Below, piece after piece: positions 28,540 through 57,236 of a stretch of DNA of 64,000 nt; positions within the stretch are counted from its first letter, which is position 1, and every line of letters starts with the position of its first letter. Where the stretch lies: positions 99,741 to 163,740 of the forward strand of contig CABMHR010000001.1 of the NCBI GenBank assembly GCA_902386025.1. The letters are read 5' to 3'. The translations under genes were made by a program, and so were the position numbers. Below the pieces are notes generated by a model. That model was not told the DNA's origin. It did not search any database and saw only the letters and a list, made by a program, of their open reading frames with translations. Origin of the DNA: an uncultured archaeon (GTDB lineage: Archaea > Nanobdellota > Nanobdellia > Pacearchaeales > GW2011-AR1).

Positions 28540-29069
28540 ACAGTTTGCTTTGTTTCAAAAGCAAATATCTTTGTAACGCTGAAGAAATTTATTTTCCTCT
28601 TCATTTCAAAGTTCTCTTTTAATATTTTTAGAATTTCATCATAAGAAGTTATATGCTCTTTTGGAACTTCTGTCTTGCCTACAAACTTCCTCATTTTTCT
28701 TGAAATAAAATTTCCTGTGGGTATAGAGACAATAATTTCAAAATTATCATTCATCTTCTTGAAATCTCCAATTATTTTTTTTATTTCGGGAGCAGGGATG
28801 TGTTCAAGGACATCAAGGCAGAATATCTTTGTTGGTTTTACTTTCCTGTAATCTTTTACAAATGTTTTTTCTGGATTTATGTCATATCCTATAATATAAA
28901 ATTTTCTTAATTTATTTTCAAGCCATCCTGCCCCGCATCCAAAATCAAGAATTACATCCTCTTTTTTAAGATGAGCAAGCTTTACTGCAGCATTTACTTT
29001 CTGCCTGAAATATGTCTTTGTCAGCAGATTCTTGCTTTCATAAGTGTTTTCAAGAAGATTATTTTCCAT
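28536..29069 (-). CDS. Class I SAM-dependent methyltransferase
   Basis: ILDFGCGAGW (motif I), CLDVLEHIP. Confidence 0.65.
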   Translation of the reverse strand: MENNLLENTYESKNLLTKTYFRQKVNAAVKLAHLKKEDVILDFGCGAGWLENKLRKFYIIGYDINPEKTFVKDYRKVKPTKIFCLDVLEHIPAPEIKKIIGDFKKMNDNFEIIVSIPTGNFISRKMRKFVGKTEVPKEHITSYDEILKILKENFEMKRKINFFSVTKIFAFETKQTV

Positions 29070-29119
29070 TATGAAAATTCTCCTGAATTTTTATTTGTGC
29101 TGAACTTCTGTTCTGTCAT
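29067..29119 (-). promoter_or_regulatory. Hairpin + TAATG-coupled mini-ORF cassette, copy 1 (upstream of methyltransferase)
   Basis: The coding strand reads ATGACAGAACAGAAGTTCAGCACAAATAAAAATTCAGGAGAATTTTCATAATG. The mini-ORF MTEQKFSTNKNSGEFS (29119..29069) ends in a TAA that shares a base with the methyltransferase ATG. Hairpin at 29074-29091 (AAAATTC/GAATTTT stem). 38 nt are identical to 45817-45854. Confidence 0.5.
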
Positions 29120-42460: not shown

Positions 42461-42487
42461 TCTTATAGCTGAATTTTGTTTTTAAAC

Positions 42488-43930: not shown

Positions 43931-43978
43931 CAGTTAGTTAGCAAAAAATAGTTTAAAAAGATTGGGATTATTCAATAA

Positions 43979-44431
43979 TTATTCTTCTTTTGGAAGAGAA
44001 ATTTCCCCGCCTGCACTCTTCACACTTTCAATTGCAGATTTTGATGCTTCTTTTGCTTTAATGAAAAGTTTGTTCTTCACTTTTTCATTTCCGAGTATTT
44101 TGTAATCTTCAAGATTAATTTCCCATTTGTCTCCTGATTTTTTCCCGAATGTTTCAAGATTTCTTTCTATTGTCATAAGGCTTATTCTTTTTCTTTTGTC
44201 TCTTTCTGTTCCTCGGCTTGTTACTCCCTGCTTTCCAAAATAATCATTTCCGTATAATTTGATTACAAGAGTTTTTTTCTGGTCTGCTCTTTTTCCTGTT
44301 CCTGACATTCCAACTCCTCCTCTGTGCCCTGCTTTCTTATGCTTCTTTCTTGCTCCCCAGCCGCAGCTTCCTGCCCCTCTTCCGAGCATTCTTCCTGACT
44401 TTTTACGTTTGTGTGTTTTTTTGAGTGTCAT
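43979..44431 (-). CDS. rpl15: 50S ribosomal protein uL15
   Basis: GRGAGSCGWGARKKHKKAGHRGGVGMSGTGKR; operon position. Confidence 0.9.
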   Translation of the reverse strand: MTLKKTHKRKKSGRMLGRGAGSCGWGARKKHKKAGHRGGVGMSGTGKRADQKKTLVIKLYGNDYFGKQGVTSRGTERDKRKRISLMTIERNLETFGKKSGDKWEINLEDYKILGNEKVKNKLFIKAKEASKSAIESVKSAGGEISLPKEE

Positions 44432-44432
44432 T

Positions 44433-44681
44433 TTACATTCCTGCTTCTAAAAGCATTTCATTTAACATTTTATAATAGTCGTCTCTGGGGGAATATCTTC
44501 CTCTTTCTACTTCACTAACTTCTCCGCCGCAATAGACATATTCTTTATCAACTATTTCCCAGTTGTCTCTACAAATTGTTTTTGTATGGCTTCCCCATTC
44601 TGAAGTAATTAGTTCTCTTCCTGCTTCTTTTGCTTCCTTTGTTTTAATATCAATTATTCTTTTTATAAGAATGTTTGTCAT
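44433..44681 (-). CDS. Orphan small ORF F (82 aa) inserted between rpl30 and rpl15
   Basis: MTNILIKRIIDIKTKEAKEAGRELITSEWG...; its ATG shares a base with the rpl30 stop (TAATG) and its stop lies 1 nt before the rpl15 ATG. No family recognised. Confidence 0.6.
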   Translation of the reverse strand: MTNILIKRIIDIKTKEAKEAGRELITSEWGSHTKTICRDNWEIVDKEYVYCGGEVSEVERGRYSPRDDYYKMLNEMLLEAGM

Positions 44682-45037
44682 TATAGCATCCTCTCAACTA
44701 ACTTATTTATTTCTTTTCCGTGATTGCCCAAAACTCCTTTCTTAACTCCGAAATGCAGTTTGCTGTCAATCCCTTTTCTTGGGGGATGAAGCCTGAAAAC
44801 TTTTGTCTTTTCCTTGAATTTCTTTCCTCTTGCTTCAATTAATTTTTTATAAGTTTCAGCATCTAATTCTCCGAATGCAACGAAATCTTTTATCTCTTTT
44901 ATCATCCCCATTTCAACAGGAGTTGGCTTATCAAGAACAATGCAGGAATATTTTCTTGTAAGTCCGAGCCTTCTGAATGTTTCTCTGACTTCTTCTCTGA
45001 TTTTTACATCTCCTGAAATTCTTATTATAACTATCAT
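44681..45037 (-). CDS. rpl30: 50S ribosomal protein uL30
   Basis: IVIIRISGDVKIREEVRETFRRLGLTRKYSCIVL. Confidence 0.9.
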   Translation of the reverse strand: MIVIIRISGDVKIREEVRETFRRLGLTRKYSCIVLDKPTPVEMGMIKEIKDFVAFGELDAETYKKLIEARGKKFKEKTKVFRLHPPRKGIDSKLHFGVKKGVLGNHGKEINKLVERML

Positions 45038-45819
45038 TCTTCTTTCTCCTTGTTTGTTTTCTTTAAAGCATCAATTGTCGCTCTTATAAGATTGACAGTT
45101 GTTCCCTTTGTTCCGAATGTCTTGCTGTAAACATCTTTTATTCCTGCAAGTTTCAGAACTTTTTTCATCTCCCCCGCAACTACTAATCCTGTTCCTTGAG
45201 GTGCAGGTATTAATGTTACTCTTACACTTCCTGATTTTCCTGTTATCTTGAATGGAATGCTGTGTTCTTCATTGCAAGCGCAGTCAAAACTTGCGCACGC
45301 TCTTCTTATTTTTATAATTGCTAATTTTGCCTGCCTTATTGATTTGTCTCTTGCAGGAAGAGTTTCTTTTGCATGCCCCATTCCTATTCCAACATGCCCG
45401 TTTCCGTCTCCAACAACTGCAAGCGTTGAGAAAGTAGGAACATTTCCTTCTTTTGTTTTTCTCTGCGTCTGCTTCCACGCTCTTCTTTTTCCTCCCCCGA
45501 ATTTTCCTTTTGACTGCCCTATGAAAAGCAGGTCAGACTGAACATTTATTAGGGAATCAACAATCTGCTCTTCCAAGATTTTCCTTTTTCCTTCGAGAAT
45601 TTCATCTATGTTTTTTATTTTCTTTTCCTTTACTTCTTTTCCAAGTTTTGTTTTTGGAACCCAAGAGGCAAGTTTTGATGCTGCTTCTCTTTCTGCTTCC
45701 TTTTCTCTTTCTGTTCTCTTGTCAACAGCAACCAAATCTTTTCCGATTTCCTTTTCAAGAAGTTCCTGGCTGATTTCTTCAGCTGTTCTCTTGTCAACTT
45801 TTTTTGCTTTCTCTGTCAT
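45034..45819 (-). CDS. rps5: 30S ribosomal protein uS5 (with K/E-rich N-terminal extension)
   Basis: VVGDGNGHVGIGMGHAKE, TLIPAPQGTGLV. Confidence 0.9.
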   Translation of the reverse strand: MTEKAKKVDKRTAEEISQELLEKEIGKDLVAVDKRTEREKEAEREAASKLASWVPKTKLGKEVKEKKIKNIDEILEGKRKILEEQIVDSLINVQSDLLFIGQSKGKFGGGKRRAWKQTQRKTKEGNVPTFSTLAVVGDGNGHVGIGMGHAKETLPARDKSIRQAKLAIIKIRRACASFDCACNEEHSIPFKITGKSGSVRVTLIPAPQGTGLVVAGEMKKVLKLAGIKDVYSKTFGTKGTTVNLIRATIDALKKTNKEKEE

Positions 45820-45872
45820 TATGAAAATTCTCCTGAATTTTTATTTGTGCTGAAATTTCCTATTTCTGTCAT
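45817..45872 (-). promoter_or_regulatory. Hairpin + TAATG-coupled mini-ORF cassette, copy 2 (fills the rpl18-rps5 gap)
   Basis: Mini-ORF MTEIGNFSTNKNSGEFS (45872..45819). Its ATG lies 1 nt after the rpl18 stop and its TAA overlaps the rps5 ATG. Hairpin at 45824-45841. 45817-45854 is identical to 29067-29104. Confidence 0.5.
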
Positions 45873-45873
45873 T

Positions 45874-46368
45874 TTATTTTTTCTCTATGCTTGATTTAAT
45901 TTCCTTGAATGTTTTTGAAAAGTCCTTCTTCATATTTTTCCCGCTTATTCTGTCTTCATCTGGGAAATTTTCTTCTGGACATTTTATCTTGACACCAGCG
46001 TCGTTGATTCCCTTGAGGAATGCAAATGCCTTGTTCTTGCTGATAGCTCTTATCATTCCAATATCTGCTATTGGGGCTTTTAGCTTCTTGCCGATAATTT
46101 CTTTTCCGAGCAGGAATCCTGTAAGGTATGATGCAGGGACTGATTTCAGGCTTCCGCTGAATTCATCAGGCCAACCGTATTTTTTCAGATTCTTTGAAGT
46201 TATTCCAATTTCAATCTTGTCCTGCGCTTCTCTGCTAGACACATATTGGGCTATTATGTATTTGTTGGTTTTTCTGAATACAATTCTTGGAGATTCGCCT
46301 TTAAGAAGCTTGAATCTTCTGGCATAATCTGTCTTGCTTTCTCTTCGTCTTCGTTTGTCTATTTTCAT
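45874..46368 (-). CDS. rpl18: 50S ribosomal protein uL18
   Basis: RRRRESKTDYARRFKLLKG...PRIVFRKTNKYIIAQ. Confidence 0.9.
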   Translation of the reverse strand: MKIDKRRRRESKTDYARRFKLLKGESPRIVFRKTNKYIIAQYVSSREAQDKIEIGITSKNLKKYGWPDEFSGSLKSVPASYLTGFLLGKEIIGKKLKAPIADIGMIRAISKNKAFAFLKGINDAGVKIKCPEENFPDEDRISGKNMKKDFSKTFKEIKSSIEKK

Positions 46369-46766
46369 TTCTTTATTCCTCCAATGTAATTTTTGAAATC
46401 TGATTTGCTTGTGAAAAATCTATTTCTTATCTTCTTCCTGTAATCTTCTTTTTCTTTTTTTGTCATTTTTCCGCTTATTTCCTTAAGATGTTTTCTCAGT
46501 CTTCTTGTAAGTGCAACATATTCTTTTTTTCTTCTGTTGACTTTTTTTCTCACATTTCCAGTGCTTCTTCTCTTCTTCCTGTTTTCCAGTTTCTTTCTTC
46601 CTTTAATGGGAACTATGACTATTGCCCCGTCTTTATGCAAGTCTTTCATATCCTGTTTTGTAAGCGCTTCTTTTATCTCGTTTAATCTCGGTTCCATAAA
46701 TTTGATTCTGCTTTCTCCTACTCCAAATGTTCTTGCTGCAAGCGCTTTTTTCTTTTTTAAGTTCAT
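46365..46766 (-). CDS. rpl19e: 50S ribosomal protein eL19
   Basis: KKKALAARTFGVGESRIKF; operon position. Confidence 0.9.
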   Translation of the reverse strand: MNLKKKKALAARTFGVGESRIKFMEPRLNEIKEALTKQDMKDLHKDGAIVIVPIKGRKKLENRKKRRSTGNVRKKVNRRKKEYVALTRRLRKHLKEISGKMTKKEKEDYRKKIRNRFFTSKSDFKNYIGGIKK

Positions 46767-47233
46767 TCTTTCTTTTCCTCCGCTTTCTTTTCTTCCTTCG
46801 CCTCTTTCTCTTCCTTCTTGATTTCTTTCTTTGTTTTCTTTTCTTCTGCTTTCATCTTCTGTCTTTTTTCAAATTTTTTTAATATTTTCTTTGCATTTAC
46901 ATTTGAAATTTGAATTCCTTTTTCCTCTGCTTTCTTTGCAATTTCAAGTTTTTTCTTCATTCCGATGTTTCCTATTACTGCAATTTCATTTTTTCTTATT
47001 TTCTCAAGTTCCCTTGTATTCATTACAATAACTGGTTTTTTTCCTTTAATCATATCTCTTGTCTTCTCTTCTGTTCTGTATCCAATTTTTACTATTGCAG
47101 GATATCCTTTTCTTTCATTTCTTGTTTTGCTGTGTCTTCCTTTTGGGCTTCTCCAGACTTGCTTTTTCTTTCTTCCTTTTCCAAGTCTTGATGCCTTGCT
47201 CCAGTTTCTTCTAAGGAATTTTAATTTCGCCAT
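46763..47233 (-). CDS. rpl32e: 50S ribosomal protein eL32 (with K/E-rich C-terminal tail)
   Basis: RRNWSKASRLGKGRKKKQVWRSPKGRHSKTRNERKGYP. The tail reads KKFEKRQKMKAEEKKTKKEIKKEEKEAKEEKKAEEKKE. Confidence 0.9.
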   Translation of the reverse strand: MAKLKFLRRNWSKASRLGKGRKKKQVWRSPKGRHSKTRNERKGYPAIVKIGYRTEEKTRDMIKGKKPVIVMNTRELEKIRKNEIAVIGNIGMKKKLEIAKKAEEKGIQISNVNAKKILKKFEKRQKMKAEEKKTKKEIKKEEKEAKEEKKAEEKKE

Positions 47234-47234
47234 T

Positions 47235-47777
47235 TTAGATAGGTTCTCCGCATTTACTTGTTATGAATATTCCGTCTTGAAAGATTCTTCTGTCTCTGTT
47301 GACGATTCTTGTTACATTTTCAAAATTTGCGGCTGCCTGTCCTGCTGTCTCTTTGTCAGATGCATCTATTGTTATAATTTCCTTGTCAATCTGGACATTT
47401 GCACCTGCTGGAATTTTAACTTTCCTTGGAGAACGCTCCCCCAAAAAGTTTTTGATTATTGCTTCATTCCCCTTTACTTCAACAGTTATTGGGAAATGGC
47501 TGAAGCATATCTTCAGCTTGTATTCAAATTTTTCCTGAACCCCTTTTATCATATTCTGAATATGAGAAGCAATTGTGTTAATTCTTTTTTTCTCATTCTT
47601 TGAGGATTTTTTGTTTCCTATAATTATCTCATTTCCTTTTTTTTCAAGAGCAAGATTCATCAAGTCAAATTCTCTTTCATTTTTCTTTCCATCTTTTTCA
47701 ACAATTACTCTTGCTCCGTCTATCTTTGTTTCAATTCCTTCAGGAATTTCAATTTTTTTGAATAATTCTTTTTTCAT
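47235..47777 (-). CDS. rpl6: 50S ribosomal protein uL6
   Basis: IEIPEGIETKIDGARVIVEKDGKK.... The ATG at 47777 sits 1 nt after the rps8 stop; the track start at 47795 would overlap rps8 by 17 nt. Confidence 0.85.
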   Translation of the reverse strand: MKKELFKKIEIPEGIETKIDGARVIVEKDGKKNEREFDLMNLALEKKGNEIIIGNKKSSKNEKKRINTIASHIQNMIKGVQEKFEYKLKICFSHFPITVEVKGNEAIIKNFLGERSPRKVKIPAGANVQIDKEIITIDASDKETAGQAAANFENVTRIVNRDRRIFQDGIFITSKCGEPI

Positions 47778-47778
47778 T

Positions 47779-48159
47779 TTAGTAGAAATAAGCAATTAAG
47801 CTTCCTCCAATTCCTTCCTCAACTGCTTCCTCGTGAGTCATCAAGCCCTTGTTTGTTGAGATTATCATCTCCCCTATTCCTCTTGCAGGAAGATATCTTC
47901 TGATATATTTTTCAATTTCATCTTTTCCCACTGTGAATCTTGGCTTTATTGCCTTGCATTCTGCAACGTTTCCAAGAGTTATTTCAACGCTCTTTTCTTT
48001 TGGATTAATCTTATACTTCTTTATTGCTTCTTTTTGCTTCATTATTTTTAGAATTTCAATTAGCAAATTTGAGATTTTCTTTATCTCAATTGTTTCTTTT
48101 CCTGCTTTTCTGGCGTTTTTCATCATATTTAATGCGTCAGCAACTGTGTCCTGGCTCAT
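47779..48159 (-). CDS. rps8: 30S ribosomal protein uS8
   Basis: MSQDTVADALNMMKNARKAGK... Confidence 0.9.
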   Translation of the reverse strand: MSQDTVADALNMMKNARKAGKETIEIKKISNLLIEILKIMKQKEAIKKYKINPKEKSVEITLGNVAECKAIKPRFTVGKDEIEKYIRRYLPARGIGEMIISTNKGLMTHEEAVEEGIGGSLIAYFY

Positions 48160-48329
48160 TTTAATCTATAACCTCCAAGATTATCTAAATGAATTTCTTC
48201 ATTGCATTTAAATGGGTTTATCTTTTCTTTTGCCCACATCGGAATATAATCTGTTGCTATGTCTGTTAGGATTTTGAATTCCTTCTCGCTAATCTTTCTT
48301 TCAATTCTTGTTAAATGTTGTTCTTTCAT
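48156..48329 (-). CDS. Orphan small ORF E (57 aa, not in ORF track) inserted between rps14 and rps8
   Basis: Hand translation: MKEQHLTRIERKISEKEFKILTDIATDYIPMWAKEKINPFKCNEEIHLDNLGGYRLK. Its ATG lies 1 nt after the rps14 stop and its TGA forms an ATGA overlap with the rps8 start. It exactly fills an otherwise unexplained 171-nt gap. Confidence 0.55.
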   Translation of the reverse strand: MKEQHLTRIERKISEKEFKILTDIATDYIPMWAKEKINPFKCNEEIHLDNLGGYRLK

Positions 48330-48330
48330 T

Positions 48331-48561
48331 TTAGTTGTATTTTTTGAATCCGATTTCTGTTGCGATTTCTCTGAAGCAGTGTCGGCATAAATTTAATCCG
48401 TATGATTTGATGTGAGCATTGAATCTTCCGCATCTTTCGCATTTGTCAACTGCTATTCCTGTTGTTCTTTCTTTTGGTTTGTTGTGTTTTAAAAACTTTT
48501 CAAGCACAGCTGGTTTGTTCTTCAGCTGTTTTGTTATTTTTCTCCAATCTGATGCAGTCAT
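48331..48561 (-). CDS. rps14: 30S ribosomal protein uS14 (zinc-binding type)
   Basis: [25 protein letters not shown]. Confidence 0.9.
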
Positions 48562-48562
48562 T

Positions 48563-49102
48563 TTATCTGAATTCTGTCTGGAAATTGTCTTCCATAAATT
48601 TAATTATTTCTTCCCTGCTTATTGTCTGTCTTGCGGGGATTTTTCCTCTCTTCATTTTTCTCAAGCTGACTCTTCTTCCGTTTCTCTTGAAAACGACTGT
48701 TACATCCATCCCCATAATTCCTATGTCTCTTTGATATTCCATCCCAGGAATTTCAATATATTCTTTTATTCCGAATGAAAAATTATTTGTGCTTATCTGT
48801 TTTCTTCTTAATTTATTCTCAATTGCAATAAGCATTCTCTTCAGCATTTCATTTGCATTTTTTCTTATTGTAACAACTGCCCCAACTTCAAGTTTTGGAC
48901 GAACCCCAAATGCAGGAATTCTCTTGTGTGATTTCATCTTTGCCGGATTTCTTCCTGTAATCATATTAAGAAGCTTTACTCCTTTCTCAAGCTGTTCTGC
49001 AGTCCCGCCTATGCTTAATACAACTTTCTCAATTCTTATGTTTCTCATTAGGTTGTTTTCCATATCTTTCTTTTCTTTTGCTGGTTTTATTTTGTTTTCC
49101 AT
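48563..49102 (-). CDS. rpl5: 50S ribosomal protein uL5
   Basis: [17 protein letters not shown]..., [12 protein letters not shown]. Confidence 0.9.
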
Positions 49103-49104
49103 TT

Positions 49105-49755
49105 TTATTCTACTATCATAAGCTGATTTATTAAAATATTAATTTCTTTTTCTCCTGATTTTATTGTTGCAATCTTGTCCTCAATATTTAGCTTTGTAAT
49201 TTCTCCTTTCTTTCCGATATGTTTTCCTGAAAATACAACTGCCTTTGCTTTATCTTTCAAAGGTATGCATTTTTCTATCTTTCCTTCTTTAAGGTTGATT
49301 AATACAGAATCATTTGTGTTGCATTTGATGTCCGAAATAAAATTTCTCCCGTCGCTTAAATTTAACTGCGTCTTTTTCCCTTTCAAAACTTTCTTGTTTA
49401 TTATTTTTGCAATTTTTCTTCCCGCTTCATTGTCTTTTATTTCATTAAGGAAGAATTTTCCGTTGTCAGACAATTCAACTCTGTAGCTTTTCTTCAAGGG
49501 AAGAACATTAAGCGTGTCAAAGAACAGGACATTGCTTTTTTCATCTTTTACTGCTTTTTCATTTACCAAAATTTGTCTTGCGTGGATTATTTTTTTTGCT
49601 TCCCTTCTGTTCTGCGCCAGTTTCATTATTTCTCTTAATACAATAAGCATTGGGATTCCTTCTTCCATTCCGAAGTTGGGCTTTACTATGTATGCTGTTC
49701 CTTTTCTTTCAACAGGCCATTTGTTCGGTGCACTTTCACGTTTTAGATGGCTCAT
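49105..49755 (-). CDS. rps4e: 30S ribosomal protein eS4
   Basis: MSHLKRESAPNKWPVERKGTAYIVKP. Confidence 0.9.
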   Translation of the reverse strand: MSHLKRESAPNKWPVERKGTAYIVKPNFGMEEGIPMLIVLREIMKLAQNRREAKKIIHARQILVNEKAVKDEKSNVLFFDTLNVLPLKKSYRVELSDNGKFFLNEIKDNEAGRKIAKIINKKVLKGKKTQLNLSDGRNFISDIKCNTNDSVLINLKEGKIEKCIPLKDKAKAVVFSGKHIGKKGEITKLNIEDKIATIKSGEKEINILINQLMIVE

Positions 49756-49961
49756 AGTGCGTAAACCTCCCTTATTTTTTCACTGAAAAATTTCTGGTAT
49801 CCTCTAAGGTAATCTGTGTTGTCAGAAGTGATAAGAACAATTGCTAAATTGTCTAATTGTATTTTCTTTTCTTCTGAATTTTTAGCCAGTTCAATTCTTG
49901 ACATACATTCTGCACACTGGAAAATTCTTTTTCTTCCTTCTGCTAATTCTTTATTTTTCAT
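49752..49961 (-). CDS. Orphan small ORF D (69 aa) inserted between rpl24 and rps4e
   Basis: MKNKELAEGRKRIFQCAECMSRIELAKNSEEKK.... ATGA start/stop overlaps at both ends (with the rpl24 stop and the rps4e start). Confidence 0.6.
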   Translation of the reverse strand: MKNKELAEGRKRIFQCAECMSRIELAKNSEEKKIQLDNLAIVLITSDNTDYLRGYQKFFSEKIREVYAL

Positions 49962-50374
49962 TTTTTGTTCTCCTTAACTTCTGTTTTTTTTGATTGTTCT
50001 TCTTTGCTTGTTTTCATTCGTTTTTTGTCGTCCTGATTTAATTCTATAATCTGAAGATTTGAAGGCTGCATTTTAATGTTTGCTTTGCTTCCATCCTGCT
50101 TTTTTACTTGTATTCCTTCAATCTTTACTTTTGATGTCTTGACATTTACTTCTATTACTTTTCCTGTTTTTTTCTTGAATTTTCCCCTCATAATTCTTAC
50201 GCTGTCTCCTTTTCTGACAACAATGTTTCTTTTCTTGAATTTTTTTCTTAATTCTTTTGAAAGATTCACACTTAGCAAATTTCTTTTTATGTGAAGCGGA
50301 GCGTTCGCTGAATATTTTCTCTGCTTTCTTGGCTGGGAACTTCCTTTCCAGTGTTTGCTGAATTTGTTTTTCAT
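49958..50374 (-). CDS. rpl24: 50S ribosomal protein uL24 (KOW)
   Basis: VRKGDSVRIMRGKFKKKTGKVIEVN. Confidence 0.9.
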   Translation of the reverse strand: MKNKFSKHWKGSSQPRKQRKYSANAPLHIKRNLLSVNLSKELRKKFKKRNIVVRKGDSVRIMRGKFKKKTGKVIEVNVKTSKVKIEGIQVKKQDGSKANIKMQPSNLQIIELNQDDKKRMKTSKEEQSKKTEVKENKK

Positions 50375-50616
50375 CTTAATAGTTGTGCCTCTGCCTTATG
50401 TTTTTCCCAATATTTATTAATTAAACTGAAATATCCATCTTTGTAATCTGAGATGTTGTATCCTTCATCTTCAGCAATTCTTTCTATTTCCAGCACATTG
50501 CGTGCTTCTGCCCATATCTCCCCGCCTTTCTCTACTGCTTCCTCAAGCACTCCTAATCTTTTTTCTAATAGTCCGATAAGCCCTTCTCTAATTTTCCTTT
50601 CATTTTTTCCTTTCAT
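50371..50616 (-). CDS. Orphan small ORF C (81 aa from the internal ATG) inserted between rpl14 and rpl24
   Basis: MKGKNERKIREGLIGLLEKRLGVLEEAVEKGGEIWAEARN.... The ATG at 50616 lies 1 nt after the rpl14 stop, and its TGA forms an ATGA overlap with the rpl24 start. The 116-aa track version (to 50721) would overlap rpl14 by 104 nt. Confidence 0.6.
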   Translation of the reverse strand: MKGKNERKIREGLIGLLEKRLGVLEEAVEKGGEIWAEARNVLEIERIAEDEGYNISDYKDGYFSLINKYWEKHKAEAQLLR

Positions 50617-50617
50617 C

Positions 50618-51019
50618 TTAATATACAACTGCAGCGATTTTTGCCACAGACGGCCATCGCTCCATAACCTCCCTTGCAATTGCTCCTTTAATTTGAGTTC
50701 CTTTTGGATTTCCTTTTTCATCTTTTAGAAGAGCTACGGCGTTGTCTTCAAATGCTACCCTCTCCCCGTTTAATCTTCTGTATGATTTTTTCTGCCTTAC
50801 TAATATTGCATCAAAAACTTTTCCTTTCATTTCAGGAAGTCCTTTTCTGACGCTGACTTTCACCCAGTCTGCAATCTTTGCATACTGCTGTCTCCCCTTT
50901 GTGCTTTTCCCTCTCTTGACTGAAACTAATCTAACAATCTTTGCTCCGCTATTGTCAGCAGCAACCATTGTTGCTCCCAAATTCAATCCTCGTGATGCTC
51001 TTGCAGATATTGCTTTCAT
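50618..51019 (-). CDS. rpl14: 50S ribosomal protein uL14
   Basis: LNLGATMVAADNSGAKIVRLVSV. Confidence 0.9.
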   Translation of the reverse strand: MKAISARASRGLNLGATMVAADNSGAKIVRLVSVKRGKSTKGRQQYAKIADWVKVSVRKGLPEMKGKVFDAILVRQKKSYRRLNGERVAFEDNAVALLKDEKGNPKGTQIKGAIAREVMERWPSVAKIAAVVY

Positions 51020-51065
51020 TTTACAAACTCCTGTTGGAGAACGAATGAAAATATTTTATTTGCTT

Positions 51066-51260
51066 TCATTCTCCTTCCTCCGTAATTTTCTCTCCGTAAA
51101 TTCTCATTGGTATCCTTTTTCCATTCTCAACTGAATAATCCCCGTCATTTTCTTCTGCTGTAAAATTTTCAATTGGGATGAATTCGTAATTTCTTGTTGG
51201 TTTGTTAAATTTTCTTCTTTCTCTTTCAAGTTCTTTTTGTGTCATTTCAATTCTTTCCAT
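51066..51260 (-). CDS. Orphan small ORF B (64 aa) inserted between rps17 and rpl14
   Basis: MERIEMTQKELERERRKFNKPTRNYEFIPIENFTAEENDGDYSVENGKRIPMRIYGEKITEEGE. Its ATG shares a base with the rps17 stop (TAATG). A 46-nt spacer containing GGAG precedes rpl14. Confidence 0.6.
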   Translation of the reverse strand: MERIEMTQKELERERRKFNKPTRNYEFIPIENFTAEENDGDYSVENGKRIPMRIYGEKITEEGE

Positions 51261-51616
51261 TATCTCTCTCCTGCGTTTTTTATTTTTTTAATTACAGTGA
51301 AGTGGATTATCTTGCTTAATGGACGGCATTCTTGTATTTTTATCAAATCTCCGATATTGATTTGCTTCTCCATGCATTCTGCAAGATGAGCGTGTATTTT
51401 TGTTTTTGATTTGAAGTATCTCTCGAACTTTCTTGAATATACTCTTCTTTCAAGCTCGATTGTGACTCTTGTTGGGAGTTTCTTTGTAACTCTTCCTTCA
51501 AAGGTTCTTCCTCTGATTTTCAAATCTCCGTGAAGATGGCATTTCTTGTCGCTGCACGCAGCACCGCCTATTTCTGATTTTTCTTTCTGTTTCTTTTCGT
51601 TTTCTTGTTTTTTCAT
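51260..51616 (-). CDS. rps17: 30S ribosomal protein uS17
   Basis: GRTFEGRVTKKLPTRVTIELERRVYSRKFERY... Confidence 0.9.
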   Translation of the reverse strand: MKKQENEKKQKEKSEIGGAACSDKKCHLHGDLKIRGRTFEGRVTKKLPTRVTIELERRVYSRKFERYFKSKTKIHAHLAECMEKQINIGDLIKIQECRPLSKIIHFTVIKKIKNAGER

Positions 51617-51686
51617 TTTGTTTTTGTTTATGTGTGTTTTCTTTTCTCGTTTCTACCATTGTAGGTTCTTTTTTTAAAGAACCCCA

Positions 51687-51980
51687 TTAGTCAATCGACT
51701 CTGGGTTAAATCCAAGCTTCACAAGGACTTCTTTTATCTTTTTCCTGTGATCTCCCTGAAGTTCTACCTCGCTGTCTCTGTAAGTTCCGCCGCACGCAAG
51801 CTCGTTTTTAAGGGCTTTTGCGACTTCTTTCACATCGACTCCACTTAGTCCGCTGACAATAGTGACATATTTGCCGTATCTTTTCTTCTCGGCAGTCACT
51901 TTGATATTCTGCGAACCCTTAGCGATTTTTTCACACACGCAGGCTTGTTTTGGAAGCCCGCACTTTGGACATATTTCCAT
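51687..51980 (-). CDS. Translation initiation factor aSUI1 (aIF1)
   Basis: N-terminal Zn-knuckle CPKCGLPKQACVC, then KYVTIVSGL...ELACGGTYRDSEVELQGDHRKKI (SUI1 fold signature). Confidence 0.85.
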   Translation of the reverse strand: MEICPKCGLPKQACVCEKIAKGSQNIKVTAEKKRYGKYVTIVSGLSGVDVKEVAKALKNELACGGTYRDSEVELQGDHRKKIKEVLVKLGFNPESID

Positions 51981-52039
51981 TATGAAATTTGTTCTGCAAA
52001 TTTTATTTGTGTTGAACGAATTTTAATGAGTTCTGTCAT
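51978..52039 (-). promoter_or_regulatory. Hairpin + TAATG-coupled mini-ORF cassette, copy 3 (diverged; fills the rpl29-aSUI1 gap)
   Basis: Mini-ORF MTELIKIRSTQIKFAEQIS (52039..51980). Its ATG lies 2 nt after the rpl29 stop and its TAA overlaps the aSUI1 ATG. The hairpin at 51985-52003 (AAATTTG/CAAATTT) keeps pairing through two compensatory changes relative to copies 1 and 2. Confidence 0.5.
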
Positions 52040-52041
52040 GT

Positions 52042-52254
52042 TTATTTATCGTTCCCAACCTTCTTGAAATTTTTATTTTCTAATCTGTTGAGTGTTAATA
52101 TTCGTGCAATTGTCTTCTTTATTTCTTTTGCTTTTGAAGTTCCTGACTTTGAAGCATTTGCTCTTGTTTTTATAAGTTCAAATTTCAATTCGTCTATTTT
52201 TTTCATTCTTTCTTCCTTGCTCATTTTGTTTATATCTTTTATTTTTAATTTCAT
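52042..52254 (-). CDS. rpl29: 50S ribosomal protein uL29
   Basis: KMSKEERMKKIDELKFELIKTRA. Confidence 0.85.
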   Translation of the reverse strand: MKLKIKDINKMSKEERMKKIDELKFELIKTRANASKSGTSKAKEIKKTIARILTLNRLENKNFKKVGNDK

Positions 52255-52931
52255 TCTTTCTTCCTCCTTGCTTTAACTTTCTTTTCTTCTTTTTCAATCT
52301 CAACTGCTACTGAATTCATCTTTAACTTTTCAATAATATCTTTGTTCAGGACTAATTTGTCTGTCAAAACTGCATGAGGAGAAAGTATGCTGACTTTAAC
52401 CCCGACTGTTCCTGGGCGTGTTTGTGCTACTGCTCTTGCTCTATCAACTACTTTTGCAGTATCTCCGACTTTTCTAAGATATCCCTGCGAGAATCTCCAA
52501 GTTTTTGCCCTCGCACTTGGAAGCTTTCCTCCCAAGACAATCTCTGCTCCTAATGCTCCTGCATTCATAATTCTCTGAAGATTTTTGTAAGCAACTACCT
52601 TGAATTTCAGCGGGCCAAATCTTTCCAAGCTTAATGCAATTTCATCTGCAATAATCTGCGCGTCAAATTCTGGCTGGAGTATTTCATCAATTTCTATTCT
52701 TGGATTTTCAAGCTTGAATTTTGTCTTAAGCATATCTGTCAAGCTTTCTATTTTTTCTCCTCTCTTGCCTATAACAATTCCGGGCTTGTTTGTGGAAATG
52801 ATGACTTTTTCTCCGATAGGAGTGTATTCAATTTTTACTCTGCTGATTTTTCCCTTTCCAAGTATTGTTTTGATGTATTCCTTTATAGCAAATTCATCTT
52901 TCTTGAATTTTACAGTTGCTCTTTCTTCCAT
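52251..52931 (-). CDS. rps3: 30S ribosomal protein uS3 (KH domain)
   Basis: KPGIVIGKRGEKIESLT; operon position. Confidence 0.9.
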   Translation of the reverse strand: MEERATVKFKKDEFAIKEYIKTILGKGKISRVKIEYTPIGEKVIISTNKPGIVIGKRGEKIESLTDMLKTKFKLENPRIEIDEILQPEFDAQIIADEIALSLERFGPLKFKVVAYKNLQRIMNAGALGAEIVLGGKLPSARAKTWRFSQGYLRKVGDTAKVVDRARAVAQTRPGTVGVKVSILSPHAVLTDKLVLNKDIIEKLKMNSVAVEIEKEEKKVKARRKKE

Positions 52932-52937
52932 ACTGAT

Positions 52938-53525
52938 TTACTTTTTCTCCTTGTGTTTTTTCTTTATTTTATTTTTCTCCACAGCTTTTATGTGAATGTG
53001 AGTTCTTTTTCTTTTTATTCTGCCAAATCTCCCGTATGGGCGTGATGCTCTGTTCGGAACAGCTTCTGTGATTATCGGCTCTTCCATATTGTTCATATTT
53101 GCATTTGCTTTCAGGGATTTAAGCATCTGAATGAAAAATCCAACTGGCTTTGTCATATATCTTCCAGACATCATTCCCTTCCCTTTTCTGTGGGGAATTT
53201 CTCCTGTCATTGGAATTGCTTTTTTTAATTTTTCAACTTCTTCCAAATCTGAAATTGCCTTGTCTATTGATTTTCTTTTTATGAATTTGCAGATCGCAAC
53301 AGAATCTTTTGTTGATATAGGAAGAGATATTCCGTTTACAACAGATTCATCTCTCTTTACTTTTGGAATTATTTTTCTCTCTTTCTTTCCATTCTTATTT
53401 TCTTCTGCCTTTGCTTCTTTCTTTTCTTCCTTTTTCATTTCAGCTCCGTCTATCTTTTCAACATTCTTCTGTTTTTCCATTACTTTGTTTTCTCTCTGTT
53501 TTGCGTTGTAATCTTTTTCTGTCAT
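52938..53525 (-). CDS. rpl22: 50S ribosomal protein uL22 (with K/E-rich N-terminal extension)
   Basis: GISLPISTKDSVAICKFIKRKSIDKAISDLEEV. Confidence 0.9.
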   Translation of the reverse strand: MTEKDYNAKQRENKVMEKQKNVEKIDGAEMKKEEKKEAKAEENKNGKKERKIIPKVKRDESVVNGISLPISTKDSVAICKFIKRKSIDKAISDLEEVEKLKKAIPMTGEIPHRKGKGMMSGRYMTKPVGFFIQMLKSLKANANMNNMEEPIITEAVPNRASRPYGRFGRIKRKRTHIHIKAVEKNKIKKKHKEKK

Positions 53526-53526
53526 T

Positions 53527-53934
53527 TTATTTCTTGGCTTTTGCTTTGCTTCCTTTAGTTGCTCCTACTCCTGCATTGCTGTGCTTTACTTTCATTCTTG
53601 TTGGTGCGAATTCTCCTAATCTATGCCCCAGCATTTCTTTCGTGATTTCAACAGGGAAAAATTCGTGCCCGTTGTGAATGAGTATCTTCAATCCGACTAA
53701 CTGGGGAACAATAACCAATGCTCTATTGTGAGTTTTTATCTGCTTGTTCTTTTCTGTTTTTCTTTTTGTTCTGCTAACGAAATCTTCAATTTCCTGAAAC
53801 TGCCTTAAAGCAGCTCTTCTCTGCCTTGATTTCAAGTATTTTGCAAATTCACGAACATCTAAAGTTTTCAACTCGTCAATTGATTTTCCTTTGTATGTGA
53901 ATGCTTTTTTGTTTGATGTTATTATTTCTGCCAT
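53527..53934 (-). CDS. rps19: 30S ribosomal protein uS19
   Basis: HNGHEFFPVEITKEMLGHRLGEFAPTR. Confidence 0.9.
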   Translation of the reverse strand: MAEIITSNKKAFTYKGKSIDELKTLDVREFAKYLKSRQRRAALRQFQEIEDFVSRTKRKTEKNKQIKTHNRALVIVPQLVGLKILIHNGHEFFPVEITKEMLGHRLGEFAPTRMKVKHSNAGVGATKGSKAKAKK

Positions 53935-53935
53935 T

Positions 53936-54637
53936 TTATCTCTTTCTCCTTCCTGTTCTTGCAGGGCGTATTAATCCAACTCTTGCTCCTGCAGGGGCAT
54001 TTCTCTTTGCAATCTTGCTCTTGATTCTCTTTCCTCTACCAGAACCGAATGGGTGGTCTATTGCATTCATCTTGACTGCAGAAGTTCTCGGCCACAATTT
54101 ATTTCTTGTTTTCTTGATATAAAAACTCTTACCTGCCTTCACAATCGGCTTGTCTAATCTTCCGCTTCCAGCGACGCTGCCAACGATTGCCCTGCATTTT
54201 TGGTTGAATTTCTTTTCTTTCTTTGAAGGCATTAATACGAACACATCATCTCCGAAAATTCTGTTTACAACAGCATAGCTTCCTGCTGTTTTTATGAAAA
54301 CTCCGCCGTCTCCTGGGCGGGATTCTATGTCATAAACTTTTGTCTTTATCGGAATATCTTTTAATCTCATTATGTTCCCGTCTTTTACTTCTTTTCCTTC
54401 AAAGCTTATTTTCTGCCCCTCAATCATTCCGTTGAATGCAGGGATGTGGAAACATTCGCCGTTGTATTTTATCTTCGCCAAAGGAGCAGTGTGCCCTGAA
54501 GAATTAATCAATTCAGCAACTTCCCCTTCTCCGATTAATGCTCTTGGATATTTGAGCCTGATTCTGAAAGCGCTTCTTCTTACTCTGTAGCTGAAGCTTC
54601 CGTGCCCTCGTGCCTGAACAATTATTCTTTTTCCCAT
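53936..54637 (-). CDS. rpl2: 50S ribosomal protein uL2
   Basis: MGKRIIVQARGHGSFSYR..., NAIDHPFGSGRG. Confidence 0.95.
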   Translation of the reverse strand: MGKRIIVQARGHGSFSYRVRRSAFRIRLKYPRALIGEGEVAELINSSGHTAPLAKIKYNGECFHIPAFNGMIEGQKISFEGKEVKDGNIMRLKDIPIKTKVYDIESRPGDGGVFIKTAGSYAVVNRIFGDDVFVLMPSKKEKKFNQKCRAIVGSVAGSGRLDKPIVKAGKSFYIKKTRNKLWPRTSAVKMNAIDHPFGSGRGKRIKSKIAKRNAPAGARVGLIRPARTGRRKR

Positions 54638-54641
54638 GTTA

Positions 54642-54884
54642 TTATATTAATCCCAATTTCGTTGCTACATCAATAGCAGGAAATTCTTTTTTTAATTTAA
54701 CATAAACATATTTCTTATTCCCTTGCACAAGTGTTCTAAGATTCTGAATCTTGACTTTGAAAAGATTTTCAATTTCATTTTTTATTTCTGTTTTTGTTTT
54801 CTCTTTTTCAGTTTCAAATGTAAGAACATTCTGGCTTTCTATCAGCATTACTGCTTTTTCTGTTACAATCGGCTTGATATTCAT
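54642..54884 (-). CDS. rpl23: 50S ribosomal protein uL23
   Basis: MNIKPIVTEKAVMLIESQNVLTFE.... The ATG at 54884 forms an ATGA overlap with the stop of orphan ORF A. The track start at 54929 adds 15 unlikely residues. Confidence 0.85.
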   Translation of the reverse strand: MNIKPIVTEKAVMLIESQNVLTFETEKEKTKTEIKNEIENLFKVKIQNLRTLVQGNKKYVYVKLKKEFPAIDVATKLGLI

Positions 54885-55192
54885 TTTATCTTTCCCTCCA
54901 TTGAAGCATTTTTTATTTCTCTCATGCATCTTCCCAAAAGTCCGCTGAATTTAATCTGCGTTTCATAATTTTTATTAAATTTTGCAGTTATTGATTTAAA
55001 ATATCCTCCAAACATTCTCAAATAAGTGTTTGTTAATTCAGGACGCTCTTTAACTACTTTGCATCCTTCTTTTTTAGTATAATCAACATCCACTAACAAA
55101 TCAACAAGCCCAGCAATAGTGAAGCAATCCACTTCTGGATATGTACCAAGTCTTGATTCAACAAAATTCTCTAGTTCTGCATCTTTGCTCAT
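54881..55192 (-). CDS. Orphan small ORF A (103 aa) inserted between rpl4 and rpl23
   Basis: MSKDAELENFVESRLGTYPEVDCFTIAGLVDLLVDVDYTKKEGCKVVKERPELTN.... ATGA overlaps with the rpl4 stop and the rpl23 start. No family recognised. Confidence 0.6.
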   Translation of the reverse strand: MSKDAELENFVESRLGTYPEVDCFTIAGLVDLLVDVDYTKKEGCKVVKERPELTNTYLRMFGGYFKSITAKFNKNYETQIKFSGLLGRCMREIKNASMEGKIK

Positions 55193-55986
55193 TTTATTTT
55201 TTCTCCAATTTCTTTAATTGCGTTTTCAGTATACATTGTCAATCTTCCAACTCCGCCGTTTGCCAAGTCAGTCACATTTAATCCCTTGGCTTTTTTGACA
55301 TCAATCACATTTGTCTTAAATTTTTCCTTTTCTCCTATAACCAAAAGAAGCCCTGCACTTTTCTTGTATTTTCTTCCTCTTAATTTTCCAATTCCGCTTC
55401 TTACTTTTCTCTGCTTTAATGAAACTTCAAACAAATTTTCTCCAAGTATTTTTTCAAGGCTTAATATTAAATCTTTTACCTTAAGAGAAAGAAGTTTTGG
55501 CTCTACAATAAAAGGCAGCCCTGAAATCTTTTTTCCATTCAATCTTTCATATCTTTCAGAAACAAGTTTTTCATTTCCTGTTGCGCTTAATGCAGATTTC
55601 AGTGCAATTTCTATCTCCTTTTTGTTTATTTTCTTTGTATTAATCATTGACTCAATCTTCGGAGGATGAGCCCTTCTTCCGCCTTTTGCATTTGGAATTT
55701 CTGCACCAACCCAGTTAAACTGGCTTCCTCTTCTTGACATAATTTTTCTTGGAACTCTTGAAATTCCTTTTCCCTGCATAGTCTTCCACACATTTCTTGT
55801 GTGCTGAATATTTCCGCTTGCAGAATGCTGCTTTCCTGCAACAGGCGACGGAGAATACGGCTGTCTCACTTTCTTGGCTTCCAGAACTTTTGAAACAATA
55901 TCTTCTCTTATTTTTTCAGAGAAAGCAGGAGGGAGTTCAATGCTTCCTTTTTCTTTTCCGTTAATATCTAAAATTTTTGCTTTCAT
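55189..55986 (-). CDS. rpl4: 50S ribosomal protein uL4
   Basis: RQPYSPSPVAGKQHSASGNIQHTRNVWKTMQGKGISRVPRK. Confidence 0.9.
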   Translation of the reverse strand: MKAKILDINGKEKGSIELPPAFSEKIREDIVSKVLEAKKVRQPYSPSPVAGKQHSASGNIQHTRNVWKTMQGKGISRVPRKIMSRRGSQFNWVGAEIPNAKGGRRAHPPKIESMINTKKINKKEIEIALKSALSATGNEKLVSERYERLNGKKISGLPFIVEPKLLSLKVKDLILSLEKILGENLFEVSLKQRKVRSGIGKLRGRKYKKSAGLLLVIGEKEKFKTNVIDVKKAKGLNVTDLANGGVGRLTMYTENAIKEIGEKIK

Positions 55987-56924
55987 CTTAACTCCAATAA
56001 TTCAAAATTCTTTTTTAATTGTTTTTTTGTTGCTCTCAACGGAGAAGTAACAAGCAGCTGCCTCTTTGCAGGGCCCTGAACACTTCCTGCTGTGATTATA
56101 TAATCTGTCTTGATGTCTCCGAAATTTCTTATTCCTTTAAATTTGTCCTCTGCTTTTCCTATTCCAATTATTTTGTTGTTGTAAGTAACTCTTGTGAACA
56201 TTCCAATCTGTCCTGCCATTGGCGCTCTGAAAGTTGTTCTTCCGGGATGGAATGAACCCAATGCTCCTGGGCGTCTCTGTCCTTTTTCTGACTTATGAGA
56301 TTTAAGAGTTATTCCAAATCTTTTTACAGGCCCCTGAAATCCTTTTCCCTTTGTCAGTCCTCTGAAATCAACAAGGTTCCCCTTTTCAAAAATATTTGAA
56401 ATCAAAATTTCTTTTCCTAAATTTTCCTTGATGAATTTTATCTTGTCTTCAAAATCTCCGCCGATTGCAATCTCGCTCAAATCAGGAGTTTTCTTTATGT
56501 TTGTTTTCTTTACAACAGAATAGCACAATGCTCTTGCGTCATCATAATCTCCCTTGAATTCTTCTGTCTTCTTTGCGTTCTTTGGGAATTTTACTTTTCT
56601 CTTTAATTCCTTGTCAATGTTTTCGGCAAGAACATCTTTTGCAACTTTTCCATTTTTGTATAATCTTACAGAGAATATTTTCATAGCAGGGCATTCAAGA
56701 ATTGTAACCGGAACAACAATTTTCTTCCCTTTAGTCATTGAATCAGGAGTATCATCCTTTACAAAAGCAGAAGCCATTCCTGCCTTGTAGCAGATAAATC
56801 CTTTAAGCTTTTTATTAGAATCAGACTTTACAGCATTCCAGTTAGGACTAGGCAGAATCTTTTTGGCTCGTTTTCTCGGCCAGTACTGCATGCTTCCTTT
56901 TCTTGGTGAATTTGGTGGTGCCAT
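55983..56924 (-). CDS. rpl3: 50S ribosomal protein uL3
   Basis: MAPPNSPRKGSMQYWPRKRAKK..., GKGFQGPVKRFG. Confidence 0.95.
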   Translation of the reverse strand: MAPPNSPRKGSMQYWPRKRAKKILPSPNWNAVKSDSNKKLKGFICYKAGMASAFVKDDTPDSMTKGKKIVVPVTILECPAMKIFSVRLYKNGKVAKDVLAENIDKELKRKVKFPKNAKKTEEFKGDYDDARALCYSVVKKTNIKKTPDLSEIAIGGDFEDKIKFIKENLGKEILISNIFEKGNLVDFRGLTKGKGFQGPVKRFGITLKSHKSEKGQRRPGALGSFHPGRTTFRAPMAGQIGMFTRVTYNNKIIGIGKAEDKFKGIRNFGDIKTDYIITAGSVQGPAKRQLLVTSPLRATKKQLKKNFELLELR

Positions 56925-57054
56925 ATTTTATATTTGTCAATAGCGGATATCATTTTAACTAACCCTGGATAAAATATGTAGAAAAAACAGGTTTTTAAAT
57001 GTTATGAAGACAACCGATAGACAGATTTTTAAAATATATCCTGCTTATTAAACG

Positions 57055-57219
57055 ATGGGGAGAATAGTTACAAAATACTGCTGGATTGGAGTTCCTTCTG
57101 TCATTTTTGGAGCAGTTCTCTTTGCAATAAACCCCTTTAGTTTCTTATCTGGATTGTTTTTTGCAATAGGCGGGACAATAATTACATTGAACTTATTAGG
57201 GCGATTGAAGAAGTGGTGA
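57055..57219 (+). CDS. Possible 54-aa two-TM mini-protein (below ORF-track cutoff)
   Basis: Hand translation: MGRIVTKYCWIGVPSVIFGAVLFAINPFSFLSGLFFAIGGTIITLNLLGRLKKW. Two hydrophobic helices. No other support. Confidence 0.3.
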   Translation: MGRIVTKYCWIGVPSVIFGAVLFAINPFSFLSGLFFAIGGTIITLNLLGRLKKW

Positions 57220-57236
57220 ATAAGAATAAAAATTAT

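Follow-up and report, generated by a model that had tools for sequence, protein, structure and literature searches.

The L3-SecY string of ribosomal protein (r-protein) genes is among the most conserved gene orders and serves as a scaffold for phylogenomics and for quality checks of metagenome-assembled genomes (MAGs). In archaea, this cluster carries a set of fixed nonribosomal passengers, namely, aSUI1, RNase P Rpp29, SecY, adenylate kinase, and Cmk. ORFan genes enter native operons on the same strand and under the native promoter, with insertions inside existing operons being much rarer than additions at their ends and with the new gene pairs being less often canonically spaced (Price, Arkin & Alm 2006, PMC1480536). 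The 64,000-nucleotide (nt) stretch of archaeal DNA analyzed here (the window) contains a minus-strand L3-SecY cluster in which six junctions each hold an additional open reading frame (ORF), designated inserts A to F. With a probability of roughly 0.6, these six ORFs are accessory, lineage-restricted, and fast-evolving passenger genes in the r-protein operon. Among known phenomena, operon-embedded ORFans are the closest fit, of which the inserts represent an extreme, clade-wide, and apparently undescribed case; a full-text literature search returned no description of the phenomenon, although the incomplete coverage of that search means that this is no proof of novelty.

The inserts share with the ORFans of native operons a narrow range and a position on the same strand beside native genes, with the spacing typical of operons. 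They differ in number and fit, with up to 12 internal inserts in a single cluster, nearly all of them showing canonical overlaps, and with a distribution over 59 of 80 species. The fixed passengers, of which aSUI1 and SecY are present in the window, resemble the inserts in co-orientation and in tight spacing within the string. Those passengers, however, have an ancient origin, broad conservation, and established functions, whereas A to F occur in few metagenomic lineages and differ between close relatives.

The host operon string spans positions 43979..56924 on the minus strand, with every gene scoring above the curated Pfam cutoff. It shows the order L3-L4-L23-L2-S19-L22-S3-L29-aSUI1-S17-L14-L24-S4e-L5-S14-S8-L6-L32e-L19e-L18-S5-L30-L15, followed downstream of L15 by SecY (42488-43930, minus strand, identified by Pfam). 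All 24 of the 24 genes flanking the inserts belong to r-protein, aSUI1, or SecY families at the curated Pfam cutoffs, which bears out the gene order of the original prediction, and the identical order was recovered in 80 related loci. The six ORFs of that prediction, all on the minus strand and each filling one junction, were found exactly where it had placed them. Insert A (103 amino acids [aa]; 54881..55192) lies between L4 and L23 with ATGA overlaps at both ends, as does insert D (69 aa; 49752..49961) between L24 and S4e. Insert B (64 aa; 51066..51260), between S17 and L14, is joined to S17 by a TAATG overlap and is separated from L14 by 46 nt. A 1-nt spacer upstream and an ATGA overlap downstream are found both for insert C (81 aa; 50371..50616), between L14 and L24, and for insert E (57 aa; 48156..48329), between S14 and S8. 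Insert F (82 aa; 44433..44681), between L30 and L15, shows the TAATG overlap upstream and a 1-nt spacer downstream.

Eleven of the 12 insert ends are therefore positioned at -4, -1, or +1 nt from the neighboring gene, and the joints are of one kind with the native joints of the cluster. The junction sequences confirm that five inserts are coupled to both neighbors in the manner proposed. For B, the upstream TAATG and the 46-nt spacer were described correctly, but the view that B is coupled only upstream does not hold: the spacer is occupied by a mini-ORF of 17 codons (MKANKIFSFVLQQEFVK; 51016..51069, minus strand), the ATGA overlaps of which with the stop of B and the start of L14 couple B in the downstream direction as well. 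Shine-Dalgarno (SD)-like GGAG or GAGG motifs are present in the final codons of all six inserts, ahead of the next r-protein gene, and also in the last codons of the genes upstream of the inserts. The C-terminal Gly-Gly of E, for example, is encoded by the GGAGG Shine-Dalgarno motif of S8. These features support an arrangement of A to F for coupled translation, as judged from the gene joints.

The coding character of the six ORFs was assessed with a codon model trained on the window ORFs of at least 200 aa. In-frame scores for A to F range from 0.33 to 0.49 bits per codon, which corresponds to the level of the r-proteins, and the scores are negative in the five other frames; insert D scores on par with real genes. 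The G+C content decreases from the first over the second to the third codon position in A, C, D, E, and F, while in B, the first position exceeds the second and third, which are equal within rounding. A chance origin of the open frames is excluded since, when each gap is shuffled, an open frame extends over at least 90% of its length in only 0.05 to 2.4% of the trials. The predicted proteins have isoelectric points (pIs) of 4.9 to 8.6 and net charges of -4 to +2, compared to pIs of 9.0 to 11.0 for the r-proteins and aSUI1, in agreement with the earlier hand count of near-neutral to mildly acidic inserts beside basic neighbors. In base composition, the inserts follow the operon: the A-over-T skew is 0.32 in A to F and 0.36 in the r-protein genes, compared to 0.11 in other window genes, and A at the third codon position reaches 0.51, 0.48, and 0.39, respectively. 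Runs of five T's occur at 0.8 per kb in the inserts, 0.9 per kb in the r-protein genes, and 3.6 per kb in other window genes. T-runs are archaeal termination signals, and their scarcity in the inserts would fit read-through transcription. Taken on these sequence properties, A to F are genuine protein-coding genes.

The extent of the phenomenon was determined in 80 GTDB species representatives, which were fetched with an L14 probe (loci L001 to L080; further relatives' loci likewise carry L-numbers). They are mostly labelled Pacearchaeota, Woesearchaeota, or Nanoarchaeota and show L14 identities of 72 to 89%. In each locus, 23 junctions were mapped, gaps of at least 120 nt were counted as insert gaps, and the starts of insert ORFs were trimmed, excluding extension into the neighboring gene (alternative-frame similarity to L14). 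The junctions are normally contiguous within the clade, as had been assumed, with median spacings of -4 to +22 nt. At least one insert gap is present in 59 of the 80 loci, with 12 in L001 and 10 each in L002 and L074; the original prediction missed this distribution, which is clade-wide and not peculiar to the genome of the window. The most frequently occupied junctions are L30/L15 (26 loci), L3/L4 and S17/L14 (19 loci each), L14/L24 and S8/L6 (14 loci each), and S14/S8 (12 loci). No locus shows such a gap at S3/L29, L29/SUI1, or S4e/L5. Among the 159 gaps of 120 to 700 nt, a single sense ORF covers at least 90% of the gap in 91% of the cases, compared to 8% for antisense ORFs and 1% for shuffles.

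In the relatives, the starts and ends of the inserts are concentrated at -4, -1, and +1 nt relative to the adjacent genes. The encoded proteins are soluble; their median length is 94 aa, and their median pI is 6.6. On the composition measures applied to A to F (A-over-T skew, third-position bases, and T5 runs), 164 such inserts take an intermediate place, with an A/T bias at the third codon position between those of r-protein genes and flank genes. A GGAG or GAGG motif is found at positions -18 to -4 relative to the start of the downstream r-protein gene in 56% of the inserts, 37% of native joints, and 9% of control windows. A Pfam family is matched by about 20 of 149 relatives' inserts, including RNase_T (6 inserts), 2-thiouracil desulfurase, winged helix-turn-helix, and MazG (2 each), and GNAT, NUDIX, HAD, and DUF5680 (1 each). 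Homologous ORFs of ∼200 to 220 aa were observed at L4/L23, the slot of insert A in the window, in L006, L010, L031, L037, L050, and L074; these ORFs of six species are taken to be the six RNase_T (DEDD 3'-5' exonuclease) matches, the individual members of which are unnamed by the scan.

A clear homologue in the cluster of another genome was found for 48 of 174 inserts. Significant insert pairs share the same junction in 93 to 95% of the cases against a background of 9%, and the enrichment for the same junction is still threefold among pairs in the twilight zone. Families spanning different junctions also occur, as in the pairs formed by L14/L24 of L050 and L30/L15 of L064 (62% identity), by L3/L4 of L048 and L19e/L18 of L049 (45%), and by L24/S4e of L001 and S5/L30 of L008 (47%), in addition to the family of insert C. 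Which junctions are occupied is not predicted by relatedness. Of the complete clusters, the three closest to the window, with mean r-protein identities of 78 to 80%, contain 10, 1, and 12 gaps of at least 120 nt, L15/SecY included, at largely different junctions. Carriers of the A family show 71 to 75% identity to the window in L4 and L23, while the closer loci L001 and L002 (79 to 86%) contain no A homologue. The lineage-wide presence expected of a structural ribosome component is thus not found for A to F.

Searches with profile hidden Markov models, as proposed with the original prediction, assign none of the six peptides to a known family, with Pfam, NCBIfam, PHROGs, PADLOC, PDB, and Rfam all empty. 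The r-protein families of Pfam and NCBIfam give no match to A to F even at E values of up to 1, and PHROGs, PADLOC, and PDB sequence profiles give no meaningful match. No toxin, antitoxin, or defense family is matched in PADLOC or Pfam, and each insert is a single ORF instead of a two-gene module. The six peptides also lack similarity to each other (phmmer E > 1), as had been noted by eye, and each forms a singleton 90% cluster. When 1.84 billion representatives were searched exhaustively with phmmer, five homologue clusters were found for A (42 to 54% identity), two for B (61 to 65%), five for C (35 to 45%), and two for F (46 to 53%), and D and E have no homologue at an E value of 0.001 or better. 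A profile search with A gave 11 clusters among 5.8 billion, none of them named. The designation of all six as orphans is therefore adequate for D and E, which have weak same-junction relatives only, but not for A, B, C, and F, which belong to small families with 2 to 10 homologue clusters each. The narrow homologue range is the one expected of operon-embedded ORFans.

The families show features of conserved proteins. The A family contains the invariant C-terminal motif KFSGLLGRxMREIKNA, and the alignments of the B and F families contain 29 and 27 invariant positions, respectively. For D, a single relative was found, at the corresponding junction of L002, and its match is weak (21% identity; pairwise E value of 3e-4); for E, there is a weak end-to-end match to a 62-aa ORF at S14/S8 of L136 (30 to 33% identity); both may be fast-diverged orthologues. 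The ratios of nonsynonymous to synonymous substitutions (dN/dS) by the NG86 (Nei-Gojobori) method amount to 0.37 to 0.42 for B, compared to 0.08 to 0.10 for L14; to 0.43 for F, compared to 0.22 for L15; and to 0.24 for C. For A, values of 0.5 to 0.9 were obtained with saturated dS. The dN of the inserts is ∼4 times that of the neighboring r-protein. These ratios of <1 suggest purifying selection on B, C, and F, and the neutral evolution that would have contradicted the original prediction is not seen for these three.

Homologues of A, B, and F keep their junctions. Those of A lie directly upstream of L23 in L081, L086, L087, L136, and L137, with L4 as the upstream gene wherever it is shown. 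Those of B occupy S17/L14 in L001 and L088 and lie directly upstream of L14 in L083, and those of F occupy L30/L15 in L085, L090, and L091. The C homologues follow L14 in L084 (L14/L24) and L089, where the contig ends before the next gene, and precede L14 in L053. No relatives were found in viral contigs scanned with the A, B, and F families.

Structure prediction with AlphaFold2 indicates that A is a soluble four-helix bundle (predicted local distance difference test [pLDDT] score of 91; predicted template modeling score of 0.80), with no fold match in the PDB. Insert F is modeled as a small β-sheet-plus-helix domain in which four β-strands and a C-terminal helix follow a disordered segment of residues 1 to 19. 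The pLDDT score of F is 77 overall, with block means of 80 to 94 over residues 21 to 82. The F model has no significant PDB match; a PC4/Pur-alpha-like β4-α topology appears in Foldseek only among nonsignificant matches (E > 0.2; template modeling score of <0.41) and is a lead, not a result. Several candidate identities were rejected. The match of A to the Hjc nuclease reaches 13.3 bits against a cutoff of 21.1, and the model of A is all-helical. The match of F to Nop10 (NCBIfam PRK13130) reaches 13.7 bits against a cutoff of 68 and covers only 22 residues; a search of the PDB with the profile of the F family yields no chain at E values of up to 10, and F has no paired CxxC. Scores of D and E against DUF2197, DUF5884, and PRK06901 are far below the cutoffs.

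The reading as passenger genes implies a mechanism of entry and persistence. The inserts would be carried on the operon transcript by read-through, and ribosomes would pass by termination-reinitiation from each gene to the one that follows, including the essential gene downstream of an insert. In other archaea, the coupling of transcription to translation and a polarity that depends on FttA/aCPSF1 are established. By analogy, an insert that is untranslated or contains T-runs would uncouple translation from transcription, leading to premature termination and to the loss of the downstream r-protein genes. The exact fill of the junctions could then be a survivorship filter, through which only open, coupled, and T-run-poor inserts would persist. 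The equivalent slots in relatives are either empty or occupied by another gene or by a homologue that has diverged. The fidelity to junctions, the patchy presence, and the lack of congruence with relatedness together fit rare gain of an insert followed by inheritance, loss, or replacement, and exchange between relatives would proceed via homologous recombination in the conserved flanking r-protein genes. The functions of the inserts probably differ from one to another, with a nonessential accessory role being more likely than a structural ribosomal role. What weighs against such passenger genes is the genomic context of the homologues: every readable context of an A, B, C, or F homologue is an r-protein junction, with none elsewhere, unlike generic accessory genes. 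Such a restriction would be in line with a function linked to the operon or to the ribosome.

A second class of junction sequences consists of coupled mini-ORFs of 12 to 38 codons, which fill 64 of 144 short gaps. Besides the mini-ORF between B and L14, which contains a CTCC-AACA-GGAG hairpin, the window has two more, both left out of the original prediction. The 54-nt gap between L18 and S5 holds a mini-ORF of 17 codons (MTEIGNFSTNKNSGEFS; 45819..45872, minus strand) that is separated from the L18 stop by 1 nt and overlaps the ATG of S5 with its TAA. The 61-nt gap between L29 and SUI1 holds one of 19 codons, translated by hand (MTELIKIRSTQIKFAEQIS; 51980..52039, minus strand), with a TAATG on the SUI1 start. 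Of 148 short r-protein spacers in L001 to L080, 82 belong to the family of the B/L14 mini-ORF. It is observed as a loose family of elements of 37 to 119 nt with M-K-A-N-(Q/K)-x-F-S-F-I-R-like mini-ORFs and, ahead of the following ATG, a hairpin that contains the SD. The copies differ in part by synonymous substitutions, a hint that the peptide itself may matter.

The L18/S5 mini-ORF belongs to a far more strictly conserved element. Together with its joints (60 nt; 45817-45876), it is 100% identical to the L5/S14 spacer of L004, a locus with ∼73% r-protein identity to the window. The 38-nt core of this element (TTCAGCACAAATAAAAATTCAGGAGAATTTTCATAATG) is exact across genomes with 67 to 85% r-protein identity (L004, L010, L040, and L092 to L135), and 49 copies of it were found in 44 metagenome stretches. 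A second exact copy of the core in the window lies outside the cluster (29067..29104, minus strand) and ends on the ATG of a nonribosomal gene. In 40 of the 49 copies, the core is part of a frame of 16 to 17 codons, M(T/A)E-xx-FSTNKNSGEFS, with a TAATG ending on the start of the next gene, and some copies are arranged in tandem arrays with a period of 49 to 53 nt. The downstream gene belongs to the L3-SecY cluster in 13 of 41 cases, at 11 different junctions, and others include S13, S4, RpoD, HisRS, RadA, and an exosome subunit. Mobility, internal promoter activity, and a role in translational coupling are all possible explanations for this element. In L057, a Woesearchaeota MAG, another repeated element with 69 to 92% identity was observed at five r-protein junctions (3316-3417, 5307-5369, 5890-6032, 6959-7060, and 8060-8161); it ends in a 9-bp hairpin, TTAAACTCC...GGAGATTTAA, enclosing the SD just ahead of the next ATG. 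The mini-ORF elements match no Rfam family, and the hairpins of two mini-ORF spacers are not thermodynamically significant (z of -1.3 and -1.5). An origin of the ORF inserts as expanded mini-ORF elements was rejected: the hallmarks of these elements occur in only 4 and 2 of 168 ORF inserts, so no continuum between the two classes is seen. From their sequences, the mini-ORF elements independently show that whatever enters the junctions stays translatable.

Eukaryotes have dedicated r-protein chaperones such as Acl4 for uL4 and Bcp1 for uL14, and by analogy, the inserts could alternatively be lineage-specific ribosome-associated proteins or dedicated chaperones, each binding the adjacent r-protein and made in step with it by coupling. 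Such a role is unlikely. It would agree with the strict junctions (A before L23, B before L14, F within L30/L15, and C touching L14 on either side), with the confinement of the families to r-protein junctions in all readable contexts, and with neutral-to-acidic inserts beside very basic neighbors; like Acl4 and Bcp1, A to F are nonbasic and would be made alongside a specific basic r-protein. A to F show, however, neither sequence or fold similarity to those chaperones nor conservation across the clade. Presence is patchy among close relatives, and 10 of the 54 complete clusters of relatives contain no insert at all, which means that ribosomes in this clade can do without any of them. In other genomes, unrelated ORFs or ordinary enzymes occupy these slots, the dN is fourfold that of the neighboring r-protein, the proteins are not basic as ribosomal proteins are, and no sequence or fold similarity to ribosomal proteins or assembly factors was found in Pfam, NCBIfam, or the PDB. 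The escort or ribosome-associated factors suggested in the original prediction are thus not supported as stated, given the patchy presence, the RNase T-like, GNAT, NUDIX, MazG, and HAD proteins in such slots, and the nonbasic character of the inserts; a ribosomal role is conceivable but not supported. An origin of the inserts in situ, as de novo ORFs or translated spacers in which expanded junction DNA was kept only if open and of which the D and E peptides may be functionless, is improbable for the set as a whole. The missing homologues of D and E among 1.84 billion representatives, the nucleotide composition equal to that of the surrounding operon, the C termini dictated by the SD of the next gene, the parallel class of coupled mini-ORFs in short gaps, and the ease with which A-rich coding strands encode K/E-rich helices would all be compatible with it. 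The invariant motifs of A, B, C, and F, the dN/dS of <1 for B, C, and F, and the confident folds of A and F are not, nor is the rarity of mini-ORF hallmarks in the ORF inserts. Furthermore, the ∼20 of 149 relatives' inserts that are bona fide enzyme domains must derive from elsewhere. An origin as translated spacers is possible for D and E and does not fit A, B, C, and F.

The least probable of the explanations considered is that of selfish mobile cassettes targeting the junctions, whether of homing type, as addiction modules, or integron-like. Phage morons come with a promoter and a terminator of their own, and the products of homing-endonuclease genes are nucleases. The inserts resemble both in being small variable genes wedged in a patchy manner into conserved synteny, but A to F have neither feature, use host operon signals, and reside on a cellular chromosome. 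With integron cassettes, they share the form of promoterless small genes served by an upstream promoter, and the GNAT, NUDIX, MazG, and HTH cargo of the relatives resembles cassette content. Here, however, no noncoding segment of attC size is present, and the inserts are single and scattered instead of stacked at one attI; they abut their neighbors with joints of -4 to +1 nt, which leaves no room for an attC-type site. Mobility would account for the patchy distribution and for the several families at different junctions in different genomes, and truly repeated junction elements do occur in the clade, yet cross-junction pairs make up only 5 to 7% of the significant pairs. Insert C is flanked by a 13-nt direct repeat, TATTAAGATGAAA (50371-50620), which is the second longest among 135 inserts and has a control frequency of ∼0.2 to 0.3% per pair. 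Flanking repeats of at least 11 nt show a weak excess, being present in 6.7% of the inserts compared to 0.8 to 2.2% of the controls, but the flank-to-flank identity equals that of the control (10.99 versus 10.9 of 27 positions). Target-site duplication was therefore not adopted as the mechanism, with a tail of long repeats only 2 to 8 times the control among 135 inserts and a mean identity at the control level. No nuclease, integrase, transposase, toxin, or defense domain was found in Pfam, NCBIfam, PHROGs, or PADLOC; the weak Hjc match of A is at odds with a model that is all-helical; neither the window nor the flanking regions of the 80 loci contain paralogues of A to F; and A, B, and F have no relatives on viral contigs. 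Positions 42000 to 57500 contain no shared inverted repeats, and no integrase is apparent on visual reading of the window gene list, which was not accompanied by an aimed search. The proposal of selfish insertions consequently retains the patchiness and a few cross-junction families in its favor, without a mobility domain, a clear target-site duplication, or an outside copy, and there is no evidence that the inserts are self-mobile.

A broader version of the passenger-gene reading is tentative. Here, the r-protein junctions of Pacearchaeota/Woesearchaeota-type DPANN archaea would act as a nursery and exchange platform for small proteins that evolve fast, with a filter for translated inserts, the flanking genes as homology arms, a niche for the mini-ORFs, and A, B, C, and F as possible lineage-specific partners of uL23, uL14, or uL15. 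Equally speculative is the place of the mini-ORF class in such a nursery, where the M-T-E-..-FSTNKNSGEFS peptides with their TAATG ending would be conserved or mobile and would share the niche of the inserts. If A to F are passenger genes, conserved gene order in this DPANN group is at the same time a site of gene gain and turnover, and the architecture of the operon is limited by the build of the inserts, which are open, coupled, and terminator poor, and not by gene content. The cluster then represents a natural system in which to study how archaeal genes arise and are replaced, along with translational coupling and polarity. The analysis flags some 170 small proteins that lack annotation and, judged from their position, are probably very highly expressed, and both annotation pipelines and marker-gene concatenation should expect such inserts.

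Regarding the surroundings of the operon, adenylate kinase and Cmk sit by SecY in many archaeal clusters. In the window, SecY is followed by genes for an EMC3/TMCO1-like membrane protein and prefoldin alpha, and no adenylate kinase or Cmk gene is present at positions 41414-43930 (minus strand). Positions 1 to 41000 contain mostly large genes, which by eye appear to belong to cell-surface biosynthesis of the sugar-nucleotide, glycosyltransferase, and radical-SAM types. Outside the cluster, only ∼5 small ORFs are found in ∼50 kb, the density within the r-protein cluster being far greater. A further source of junction ORFs is suggested by L041, where the insert at SUI1/S17 (9363-9602) resembles part of SUI1 with ∼48% identity over 43 aa and also resembles two ORFs of the same locus, at 15617-15751 and ∼20138-20392; from this similarity, partial gene duplication may be one such source.

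The sole untranslated gap within L3-L15 is the 70-nt spacer between SUI1 and S17 (51617..51686, minus strand). An Rfam scan of the cluster gave no match even at E values of up to 0.5. Directly after the SUI1 stop, the spacer contains the hairpin GGGGUUCUUUAAAAAAAGAACCU with a minimum free energy of -11.3 kcal/mol (z = -4.2), and none of 200 shuffles is equally stable. The hairpin is followed by an A-rich tract, and comparable spacers are found in L013, L039, and L053. This spacer is likely an operon boundary or an RNA processing site.

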